From the sequence record NC_007456.1: DNA of 39,704 bases; one strand, 5' to 3'. The DNA is from Escherichia phage K1F. Below are positions 1 to 39,704 of the stretch, piece by piece (positions within the stretch are counted from its first letter, which is position 1; each line of letters begins with the position of its first letter). A program made the translations under genes and the position numbers. The notes under the pieces are model-generated. The model saw nothing but the letters and a program-made list of their open reading frames with translations. It did no database searches and had not been told where the DNA came from.

Positions 1-178
1 TCTCACAGTTCAAGAACCTCAAGTCTCCCCATAGGCCCTCTTTAAGTCCAGACCAAAGGCCCTACCCCAGTCTATCATAAGGTTGGACCGATGGTCAAGA
101 CGTCAGGTCAACGATAGGTCTAGGCTATGGCTTAGGGAAGGACGATAGGTGGTGACTATTGGTCTGTCTCTGAGTCTC
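1..178. repeat. Left direct terminal repeat (DTR), 178 bp, identical to 39527-39704
   Basis: Window start TCTCACAGTTCAAGAACCTC...CTGTCTCTGAGTCTC recurs exactly at the window end; typical of T7-like linear genomes. Confidence 0.95.
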
Positions 179-189
179 TATCTGTATCA

Positions 190-316
190 GACCATAGGTC
201 ACAGCCATAAGTCATAACCTCTACATCTCATAACCATAAGTCAAAACCTACAGTCTCACTAACCTACAGTCCTACAACCATAAGACACCAACACCTACAG
301 TCATAGACCTACAGTT
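190..316. repeat. Array of short direct repeats (CCTACAGT x4, CCATAAGTC-like x4) next to left DTR
   Basis: CCTACAGT at 247, 263, 294, 308; CCATA(A/G)GTC at 192, 205, 234, 278; analogous to T7 repeats flanking the terminal repeat. Confidence 0.7.
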
Positions 317-8503: not shown

Positions 8504-8521
8504 ACTATCACTGTAGGACAG
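8499..8521 (+). promoter_or_regulatory. Phage RNAP promoter copy 4, variant (CCTAAACTATCACTGTA|GGACAG; G at -3)
   Basis: Consensus match except -3; overlaps gene 2 stop; upstream of SSB. Confidence 0.6.
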
Positions 8522-35993: not shown

Positions 35994-36188
35994 ATGATTG
36001 AGTTAGACTTCAAGAATGAGGTCCTTAAAGCCTCTCCTATCGTCGGGACCGCTGCGGCTGATGGTGCCAGTCGGTTCTTCTTTGGACTCACACTGAACGA
36101 ATGGTTCTACGTTGCGGCTATCGCGTACACCGTTGTCCAAATTGGTGTGCTGGTCTACAAAACGATTAAAGGAGGTGGTAAAACATGA
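35994..36188 (+). CDS. 17.5: Holin (T7 gene 17.5 homolog), 64 aa
   Basis: ...SPIVGTAAADGASRFFFGLTLNEWFYVAAIAYTVVQIG... near-identical to T7 gp17.5 core; one TM segment; SD GGAGG. Confidence 0.85.
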   Translation: MIELDFKNEVLKASPIVGTAAADGASRFFFGLTLNEWFYVAAIAYTVVQIGVLVYKTIKGGGKT

Positions 36189-36448
36189 CGCAGATGGACT
36201 TAGAGAAGTTCCTATTGATGCTGGATACTGAACGTGCTCGACTCATGCTGCAAGACTTACGTGACGACTCTAAGCGTTCACCTCAGCTCTACAACGCCAT
36301 TGAGAAGCTGCTTGCTCGTCACAACTTTGTGTTAAGCAAGGTGTCTGTGGACGAGAAGACGCTGGCTGATATGGAGGCCCTGAACGCAGAGTACGATAAG
36401 GTGCTTTCAGCGACTGAGGATAATGACACCGGGTATGGTGTTCAATAA
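36185..36448 (+). CDS. 18: Terminase small subunit (T7 gene 18 homolog)
   Basis: ...RSPQLYNAIEKLLARH.F... matches T7 gp18 (RSPQLYNAIEKLLDRHKF); ATGA overlap with holin. Confidence 0.85.
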   Translation: MTQMDLEKFLLMLDTERARLMLQDLRDDSKRSPQLYNAIEKLLARHNFVLSKVSVDEKTLADMEALNAEYDKVLSATEDNDTGYGVQ

Positions 36449-36550: not shown

Positions 36551-37000
36551 ATGCTCGAATTTTTAAAGAGGGCGGCTCCGTGGTTACTTGCAGCAGTGAT
36601 GTTTGCTGGTGGCTACCACACCGCTAACAATAAGTGGGAGGCTAAGGTCAATGCGGAATACACCTCGAATCTTAAGGCATCGGAAGATACAAGGCTTGCT
36701 GTCCAAGCTGAAGTCAACAAAGTGTCCAAACGGTTTCAGGACGAAATGTCCTCGTTGGAAGGCAGCACTGATAGGATTATTGCTGACCTTAAGTCTGACA
36801 ATAAGCGGCTGCTCATCCGAGTCAAACCTACGAGTGGAACCACGCAAAGTGACGGTCGATGCTTCATTGATGGTTACGCCGAACTTGACGAACGAGATGC
36901 TAAACGTCTTATCGCCATCGGAGTGAAAGGAGACAAGTGGATTAAGGCCCTTCAAGACACTGTGAGAGCCTTACAGCAAGAGAAGGAGGTGACGCATTGA
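36551..37000 (+). CDS. 18.5: Rz-like i-spanin (T7 gene 18.5 homolog)
   Basis: N-terminal TM segment ([15 protein letters not shown]), coiled-coil periplasmic domain; SD GGGAGGG. Confidence 0.8.
36651..36926 (+). CDS. 18.7: Rz1-like o-spanin lipoprotein embedded in +1 frame of 18.5 (gene 18.7 homolog)
   Basis: Signal/lipobox [16 protein letters not shown]; ...RWKAALIGL...ISGCSSES...[15 protein letters not shown] resembles T7 gp18.7; ATG 36651 within track ORF 36603..36926 (TTG start). Confidence 0.75.
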   Translation: MRNTPRILRHRKIQGLLSKLKSTKCPNGFRTKCPRWKAALIGLLLTLSLTISGCSSESNLRVEPRKVTVDASLMVTPNLTNEMLNVLSPSE

Positions 37001-38757
37001 GTAAAGACTTAGTGGCGCGTCAGGCGCTAATGACTGCCCGTATGAAGGCAGACTTCGTGTTCTTCCTGTTCGTCCTGTGGAAAGCTCTGTCACTCCCGGT
37101 CCCGACTCGCTGTCAGATTGACATGGCGAAGAAACTATCGGCTGGTGACAACAGGCGTTTCATCTTACAGGCGTTCCGTGGTATCGGGAAGTCCTTCATT
37201 ACGTGTGCATTCGTGGTCTGGAAGCTATGGAACAACCCAGACTTGAAGTTCATGATTGTGTCGGCCTCAAAGGAACGAGCCGATGCGAACTCCATCTTCA
37301 TCAAGCGAATCATCGACCTCATGCCTCAGCTTAAGGAACTCAAACCTAAGCAGGGACAGCGAGATGCGGTTATCAGCTTCGACGTTGGACCAGCCAAGCC
37401 GGACCACTCACCTTCGGTTAAGTCCGTTGGTATCACTGGTCAGTTGACTGGTAGTCGTGCTGACATCCTGATTGCCGATGACGTGGAGGTTCCGAACAAC
37501 TCAGCGACTCAGGCTGCACGAGACCGTCTGTCAGAGCTTGTGAAAGAGTTCGATGCTATCCTGAAGCCCGGAGGCACAATCATCTATCTGGGTACTCCTC
37601 AGAACGAGATGACCCTGTATCGTGAGCTGGAAGGTCGTGGGTACACCACTACTATCTGGCCTGCTCGTTATCCACGCGACAGGAAGGACTGGCAGTCTTA
37701 CGGCGACCGTCTGGCTCCTATGCTTCAGGCAGAACTGGAAGAGGACCCTGAGTCCTTCTACTGGCGTCCGACCGACGAGGTACGCTTCGATGATACGGAC
37801 CTGAAGGAACGTGAGTTGTCATATGGCAAGGCTGGCTTCGCTCTACAGTTCATGCTTAACCCGAACCTGAGTGATGCTGAGAAGTACCCTCTGAAGCTCC
37901 GTGACCTTATCGTAGCCGACTTGGACCCAGCGTCTAGCCCAATGGTATACCAATGGCTTCCTAACCCTCAGAACAAGCGTGAGGACGTTCCTAACGTTGG
38001 ACTCATGGGTGACTCATACCACACGTATCAGACTGTAGGTTCTGCCTTCAGTTCGTACACCCAGAAGATTCTGGTCATTGACCCTAGTGGTCGTGGTAAA
38101 GATGAAACTGGTTATGCGGTACTGTACCAGCTCAACGGCTACATCTTCGCTATGGAAGTTGGCGGTATGCGAGGTGGCTATGAAGACTCTACGCTGGAAG
38201 CCTTGGCTAAGATTGGTCGTAAGTGGAAGGTCAACGAATACGTCATTGAGGGTAACTTCGGTGATGGTATGTACCTTGAGCTATTCAAGCCTGTAGCGGC
38301 CCGTATTCATCCTGCTGCTGTAACTGAAGTGAAGAGTAAGGGTCAGAAGGAACTCCGCATCTGTGACGTTCTGGAGCCTATCATGGGGTCTCACCGACTT
38401 ATCGTTAACGCTGCTGCTATCGTCCAAGACTACCAGTCAGCCTCTGATAAGGATGGTGTGCGTAACCCTATCTACTCTCTCTTCTACCAGATGACCCGTA
38501 TCTCTCGTGAACGTGGAGCCTTGGCACACGATGACCGACTTGATGCGCTGGCTATCGGTGTACAGTTCTTCGTTGAGTCGATGGCTAAGGATGCCAACAA
38601 AGGCGAACGTGAAGTCACTGAGGAGTGGCTGGAAGAACAGATGGAGAACCCACGGAAAGGCTTCGAGTCCATCCACACTGAGTTCTGGGACAATGGGGTC
38701 CGGGTAACTCATGATACAGACGAGCTGGGACTAGGGTCCTACGTTACGTTCCATTAG
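36997..38757 (+). CDS. 19: Terminase large subunit (T7 gene 19 homolog), 586 aa, apparent TTG start
   Basis: ...[50 protein letters not shown]... nearly identical to T7 gp19; TTG 36997 preceded by AAGGAGGTGA, overlaps 18.5 stop. Confidence 0.93.
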
Positions 38758-38851: not shown

Positions 38852-38874
38852 ACTTAACTATCACTATAGGAAGA
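38852..38874 (+). promoter_or_regulatory. Phage RNAP promoter copy 11 (ACTTAACTATCACTATA|GGAAGA), phiOR analog
   Basis: Consensus match downstream of gene 19, as T7 phiOR. Confidence 0.75.
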
Positions 38875-39318: not shown

Positions 39319-39444
39319 AGACCTAAGGTCAGTTCATAGCTGACGCTACTCTACTGACCTTAGCTACTGTAGTCAAGGACTTTAGGTAACACCTTAAGAG
39401 AAGCTCACTTAGGGTCATCCTACTTATTGGTCTATCCTAGTGTC

Positions 39445-39490
39445 GCCTGACCTACGGTCCTTGACCTACAGTGGCTGTGGCCTACAGCAG
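39445..39490. repeat. Short direct repeats (CCTACGGT/CCTACAGT/CCTACAGC) next to right DTR
   Basis: Same CCTACAGT motif family as at 247-315 beside the left DTR. Confidence 0.65.
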
Positions 39491-39526
39491 TGACGATGAG
39501 TTTTGGACCAAAAGTTTGAGACCACA

Positions 39527-39704
39527 TCTCACAGTTCAAGAACCTCAAGTCTCCCCATAGGCCCTCTTTAAGTCCAGACCAAAGGCCCTACCCCAGTCTA
39601 TCATAAGGTTGGACCGATGGTCAAGACGTCAGGTCAACGATAGGTCTAGGCTATGGCTTAGGGAAGGACGATAGGTGGTGACTATTGGTCTGTCTCTGAG
39701 TCTC
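39527..39704. repeat. Right direct terminal repeat (DTR), 178 bp
   Basis: Exact copy of 1-178. Confidence 0.95.

Follow-up and report, generated by a model that had tools for sequence, protein, structure and literature searches.

Dunn and Studier are said to have noted the short-repeat arrays of phage T7 in 1983, naming them SRL and SRR, and reportedly suspected them of a role in junction processing. In the T7 sequence (NC_001604), the terminal repeat ends at position 160 and is followed by ATCTGTT and then by CCTAAAG-type units every 13 bp (175-355), with five CCTAAAG-type units located at the right end (39621-39700). This confirms the statement in an initial annotation of Escherichia phage K1F that T7 possesses arrays at both of the equivalent places. 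Phage T3 (NC_003298) displays the same order as T7, with CCTAAAG and CCTGTAG units. It has been described that the junctions of the head-to-tail concatemer each contain a single copy of the terminal repeat, which needs to be duplicated (PMC10438801), and that the concatemer is recognised at PacB by gp18 and cut at PacC by gp19 (PMC9860248). As the latter source gives no PacB coordinates, PacB is not tied to these repeats. No function or description of the T7 arrays, and no binding or genetic work on K1F or T7-type arrays, was found in the accessible literature; PMC3185743, PMC4283147 and PMC10438801 make no mention of these repeats.

Phage K1F is a T7-like coliphage belonging to the genus Kayfunavirus of the subfamily Studiervirinae. 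The window, that is the whole 39,704-nt stretch of K1F DNA analysed (NC_007456.1), is 100% identical over its first 1000 bases to the K1F record AM084414/NC_007636. The arrayed motif at both ends is the 10-base ACCTACAGTC, present as direct copies in the same orientation (Table 1). The left array begins 14 bp internal to the left direct terminal repeat (DTR) and the right array stops 38 bp before the right DTR; the length of this repeat has been given as 179 bp (PMC4925675). In common with T7, the arrays are found immediately internal to each terminal repeat, on the same strand and in non-coding DNA, with ATCTGT before the left array. They also share a short motif of regular period and the pairing of a main motif with a secondary motif of the CATAAAG/CCATAAG type. 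The K1F arrays are very probably short-repeat arrays of the T7 type flanking the terminal repeat. The initial annotation had described the motif as different from that of T7, which it is by one base (CCTACAG in K1F vs CCTAAAG in T7).

A wider survey of the T7 group was carried out with K1F gp19, whereby eighty loci were fetched, fifty-three of them with enough downstream DNA. Using at least three copies of one CCT-NNN-G heptamer within 200 bp, on the coding strand, as the criterion, arrays were identified after gene 19 in 19/53 loci, compared with 1/53 coding controls of equal length. These arrays favour the + strand (Wilcoxon p = 9e-5 and 0.003) and hold the same place even where gp19 identity is as low as 56-70%. 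Their central triplet is lineage-specific, being AAA in T7 and T3, ACA in Kayfunavirus, AAT in loci L055 and L052, TGA in L046, CAA in L065, L072 and L077, and TTA in L063; the array motifs of distant relatives are CCTAATG, CCTTGAG, CCTCAAG and CCTTTAG. A-tract curvature as a shared property was rejected on a sequence argument, the AAA of T7 units being absent from K1F units. A generalised motif, CCNNNNGTC, lacked specificity, with 2.4 matches per kb on the + strand and a higher density on the - strand.

Table 1. Features at the ends of the K1F genome, with the terminase genes and the phiOR-equivalent promoter (positions in the window)
Feature	Position	Strand	Remarks
Left direct terminal repeat (DTR)	1-178		Repeated exactly (178 bp) at 39527-39704
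ATCTGTA	180-186	+	Directly after DTR; one-base variant of T7 class II pause/termination signal ATCTGTT
Left array, 8 units	192-316	+	Motif searches, 8-mer clustering, Tandem Repeats Finder
Left-array unit CCATAGGTC	192	+	
Left-array units CCATAAGTC	205, 234	+	
Left-array units CCTACAGTC	247, 263, 294	+	
Left-array unit CCATAAGAC	278	+	One mismatch to CCATA(A/G)GTC
Left-array unit CCTACAGTT	308	+	
Gene 18, small terminase subunit	36185-36448	+	87-aa ORF; PF11123 DNA_Packaging_2, E = 4.7e-12
Gene 19, large terminase subunit	36997-38757	+	586-aa ORF; gp19, DNA maturation, in AM084414
Phage-type promoter, phiOR equivalent	38854-38870	+	Exact match to K1F consensus TTAACTATCACTATAGG
Right array, 3 units	39451-39489	+	CCTACGGTC 39451, CCTACAGTG 39465, CCTACAGCA 39481
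Conserved 37-bp block, right array to DTR (…gatgagttttggaccaaaagtttgagaccaca)	39490-39526	+	Nearly invariant in relatives
Right direct terminal repeat (DTR)	39527-39704		Exact copy of 1-178

Four copies each of CCTACAGT and CCATA(A/G)GTC had been noted initially on the left, and three of CCTAC(A/G)G(T/C) on the right (39451-39488). All four CCTACAGT copies are present on the + strand (247, 263, 294 and 308), as are the three on the right, whose cores are CCTACGGT (39451), CCTACAGT (39465) and CCTACAGC (39481). CCATA(A/G)GTC is exact only at 192, 205 and 234, the supposed fourth copy being the mismatched unit at 278. Degenerate copies occur near 218-229 and at 271 (CCTACAAC). Left-array units are 13-16 bp apart, with a single double gap that contains a degenerate copy, and those of the right array are spaced by 14 and 16 bp. 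An imperfect tandem repeat with a 17-bp unit (ACTTATTGGTCTATCCT, 2.1 copies, 39407-39439) is located just upstream of the right array. The block separating the right array from the DTR may play a role in cleavage-site recognition; T7, T3 and L055 possess a similar 'aaaaatctgag…tatctca' block at its place. The right half of the DTR (98-200) contains a separate family of GAC-N5-GTC / (C/G)GATAGGT(C/G) elements (gaccgatggtc, gacgtcaggtc, aacgataggtc, gacgataggtg, gactattggtc and gaccataggtc), comparable to the CCTTGRG family in the terminal repeat of T7. With this family included, short repeats span the whole K1F junction, beyond 190-316.

Over the whole window, CCTACAGT was identified twelve times on both strands compared with a shuffle expectation of 1.65, a count matched in 0/100 shuffles. 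Neither four copies within 130 bp nor three CCTACRGY copies were obtained in any of 1000 dinucleotide-preserving shuffles, which reached a maximum of two. In a motif-free search, the densest 8-mer cluster of the genome was ACCTACAG, with four copies at 246 (three copies in the best of 100 shuffles), and the top score of Tandem Repeats Finder for the whole window was that of 205-264. The clustering is non-random and confined to one strand. Seven further copies of CCTACAGT are found inside the genome (5482, 7350, 23077 and 33812 on the + strand; 8517, 17540 and 38039 on the - strand). The one at 8510-8517 corresponds, in reverse complement, to part of a phage promoter variant, ACTGTAGG, and the remaining internal copies are all in coding sequence. 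The array region is non-coding: no ORF of at least 20 aa was found across 218-351, AM084414 carries no CDS annotation ahead of 352, and a coding reading was dropped. A reading as RNA elements was likewise dropped, as there was no Rfam match at either genome end (E up to 1).

In the concatemer, a single terminal repeat is bracketed by three motif copies on its left and by ATCTGTA followed by eight copies on its right, all running in one direction. The units may serve as repeated binding sites for a DNA-maturation protein, the best candidate being gp18 working with gp19. Bound in this way, the arrays would help to assemble or position a gp18-gp19 complex at the junction, beside a putative RNA polymerase pause site. 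The gp18 of K1F, which is 52% identical to that of both T7 and T3, is the candidate array-binding protein and gp19 its candidate partner; for K1F gp18 (PF11123) there is no solved structure. The arrays would be helper elements and not an essential packaging signal, since their copy number is free to vary (see below). Deletions near the right end of T7 (Kim and Chung, 1996) and deletions in plasmid-packaging experiments (Chung and Hinkle, 1990) are both said to point to a largely dispensable flanking sequence. The role in concatemer junction processing that the initial annotation had cited for the T7 arrays is not established here, PacB being without coordinates in PMC9860248. A probability of roughly 0.35-0.4 is given to the arrays being terminase-binding sites that aid junction processing. 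The minimal packaging signal matters for the engineering of T7-like phages and of transducing particles.

The position of the left array also suggests a role in transcription, by which the arrays, or a protein bound to them, would strengthen or position a polymerase pause at ATCTGT, an event linked to concatemer processing in T7. T7 polymerase stops 6-8 nt downstream of its signal ATCTGTT (bioRxiv 10.1101/2021.01.11.426313). In K1F, where the first unit (192) begins 6 bp past ATCTGTA, such a stop would fall at this unit. ATCTGT precedes the array in K1F, T7, T3, L046, L055 and L039, several surveyed loci possessing '…tccct ATCTGT' just before it, and pausing has been linked to packaging (PMC3276506). 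The seventh base of the element is A in K1F, with ATCTGTAT conserved in 6/6 Kayfunavirus relatives retrieved by BLAST, and T at the same spot in T7 and T3. Any base change in ATCTGTT abolishes termination by the T7 polymerase (bioRxiv 10.1101/2021.01.11.426313); K1F polymerase, which is presumed to pause at ATCTGTA, may read another seventh base or may not pause at all. Against a transcriptional role, the right array carries the same motif although it precedes the terminal repeat and is thus remote from the pause site. Furthermore, L063 and L065 possess arrays without ATCTGT, and in L052 ATCTGT is followed by a single motif copy. Such a role is regarded as unlikely, though it is the strongest of the competitors to terminase binding.

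The K1F phage promoter consensus TTAACTATCACTATAGG was found at eleven sites (0.12 expected). The site at 38854-38870 corresponds in position to phiOR of T7 and T3 and would drive transcription over the concatemer junction. No match to the consensus was found within 1-2475, and K1F is thus without a clear phiOL promoter. A link between the array motif and the promoters was rejected, TTAACTATCACTATAGG being unrelated to the motif and having no copy left of 2476. A conserved 'cctattgactataggtcc' at 424-441, which may be a degenerate promoter remnant, lies within the annotated gp0.1 CDS (352-567), the reality of which is doubtful. Within the DTR, a sigma-70-like leftward promoter (98-69, minus strand; TTGACC, an 18-nt spacer, and TAGACT with TG) is reminiscent of A0, the leftward promoter annotated for T7 and T3; taken overall, promoter-like matches did not exceed their frequency in shuffled sequence.

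Hairpins were also identified near both ends. That at 39321-39364 (GACCTAAGGTCAGT…ACTGACCTTAG; -25.2 kcal/mol, z = -3.1) is located between a 22-codon ORF, which it follows directly, and the right DTR, ~165 bp further on, and relatives retain its stem with a different loop. It is not a typical terminator, as no T-run follows it, and may serve as an RNase III site or in DNA processing. Related hairpins at 708-766 and 1032-1082 (…taactacagg…cctgactgatagtcactaac; z = -3.3 and -5.5) are found upstream of genes 0.2 and 0.3 and are similar to the sites at which RNase III processes the early transcripts of T7 and T3.

Comparison within the genus bears on whether the arrays have any function at all. 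Kayfunavirus junctions were taken from six phages retrieved by BLAST and from twelve usable loci of IMG/VR, located by means of a junction anchor (eighteen matches, of which six chance matches in unrelated contigs, L013, L017, L019, L020, L026 and L029, were dropped). Arrays are present in all of the examined junctions that extend through the array region. Two apparent left-end expansions were rejected, that of Vec13 being an unrelated insertion downstream of the array and that of phage 216Ecol046PP a duplicated junction resembling an assembly artefact. The start of the latter (L114; PP328844.1, 1-1000) consists of the terminal repeat, an unrelated segment, a second full junction (in the order right array, repeat, left array) and a partial array duplication.

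Among the fifty-six distinct unit contexts of eighteen distinct Kayfunavirus left arrays, the bases flanking the selected motif are conserved, with A at -1 in 51/56 and C at +8 in 47/56, defining the unit as A-CCTACAGT-C; most spacer positions hold <0.5 bit (0.07-0.82). Left-array units are 14-16 bp apart, rising to 25-32 bp if a further unit intervenes. CCATAAGTC units are not genus-wide, some members possessing CCTCAAGTC or extra CCTACAGTC units instead. In loci complete through the array, the left array contains two to seven copies of CCTACAGT, which indicates that no fixed number is required. The right array has three copies in 16/20 distinct junctions and two in the other four.

Part of this picture would suit a neutral origin, in which functionless arrays are produced by slippage or unequal recombination near the ends and the motif persists through the copying of whole units. 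The stretch equivalent to K1F 187-246 is the most variable of the whole junction. Runs of identical units at 14-16 bp (CCTACAGTctaaccaa x4 in L015, CCTACAGTcctacaa x5 in L016) reflect recent duplication of whole units. However, A-CCTACAGT-C is retained across ~20 distinct junctions in which spacers vary, the motif persisting amid spacers as different as ctcactaa, cctacaa, ctaaccaa and cataga. In the right array, which remains at three copies, the spacer before copy 3 has been rewritten (ggctgtgg, agctgcca, ggctgagg, agctcaca) and the motif stays. Neutral slippage thus accounts for the change in copy number but not for retention of the motif across unrelated spacers, independently on both sides of the terminal repeat, and at the same place in the distant lineages described above. 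A purely neutral explanation is improbable: selection keeps A-CCTACAGT-C, while whole-unit duplication lets spacers and copy number drift.

Replication offers another possible use for the units, as primase start sites, or for nicking or priming when the terminal repeat is duplicated. T7-type primase recognises 5'-GTC-3', and GTC closes six of the eight units on the left. Most T7 units, however, end in GAC, GCC or GTA, and a primase-site reading was rejected because the GTC ending is not common to them. Within the K1F array, moreover, GAC, which reads GTC on the opposite strand, is almost as frequent, and ACAGTC would template a primer beginning ACUG, outside the preferred T7 primers ACCC, ACCA and ACAC. 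The single repeat at each concatemer junction must nevertheless be duplicated (PMC10438801). A replicative function is improbable. Finally, the left end of a T7-type genome is the first to enter the cell and the last to be packaged, and a left array within the first 320 bp might act in genome entry or in the virion (portal or core contact, end protection) and not in packaging recognition, but this is very unlikely given the same motif and orientation at the opposite genome end, which fits a junction-centred role.

If the arrays are bound by terminase, their motif might be expected to follow it, and the initial annotation had considered the difference from T7 to be consistent with co-evolution of motif and terminase. 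This proposal is neither refuted nor supported beyond phylogeny, as the motif tracks gp18 no better than gp19. Mean gp18 identity is 87% between phages sharing a motif vs 57% between those with different motifs, and the corresponding values for gp19 are 88% vs 68%; same-motif pairs are more similar in both proteins, which reflects shared ancestry. L055 and L052 have CCTAATG in common with gp18 only 71% identical, and T7 (CCTAAAG) and L055 (CCTAATG) differ in motif despite 77% identity in gp18. Among Kayfunavirus, different secondary motifs (CCATAAGTC or CCTCAAGTC) accompany gp18 proteins with 97-100% identity. T3 and T7 share CCTAAAG, with gp18 92% identical, yet Tsuchida et al. 1996 (reference 25 of PMC9860248), going by its title, regards their packaging specificity as distinct. 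To the extent that this title can be relied on, the motif is not the sole specificity signal. It is unlikely that the central triplet of CCT-NNN-G is a lineage 'barcode' read by the maturation machinery. Were it so, co-infecting T7-like phages would avoid packaging the DNA of each other, the variable left array would be a trial ground for new specificities, and mixed Kayfunavirus arrays (CCATAAGTC or CCTCAAGTC beside CCTACAGTC) would be intermediates.

Outside the T7 group, the repeats R1-R3 of lambda cosB are bound by the small terminase subunit gpNu1 (PMC2366019). Like the K1F arrays, these are several short repeats adjoining a terminase cut site, small-subunit binding being the working model for K1F. 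Unlike cosB, the K1F arrays flank the cut region on either side and have a variable copy number, and they show no sequence similarity to cosB. T7 is closer, differing from K1F in a strict period of 13 bp (13-16 bp in K1F), in ~14 left units (eight in K1F) and in three main-motif copies inside its 160-bp terminal repeat (none in K1F). T3 possesses other motifs than K1F and a 231-bp terminal repeat containing several motif copies. It nevertheless shares with K1F the same layout, two motif types and a terminal repeat that starts alike (tctcatagttcaagaaccc… in T3, tctcacagttcaagaacct… in K1F). K1F alone adds little to this; the added value is in the comparative picture of a 10-bp unit with a lineage-specific triplet, and of a variable left array set against a fixed three-copy right array. 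The arrays of K1F are an ordinary feature of the T7 group and of a known kind.
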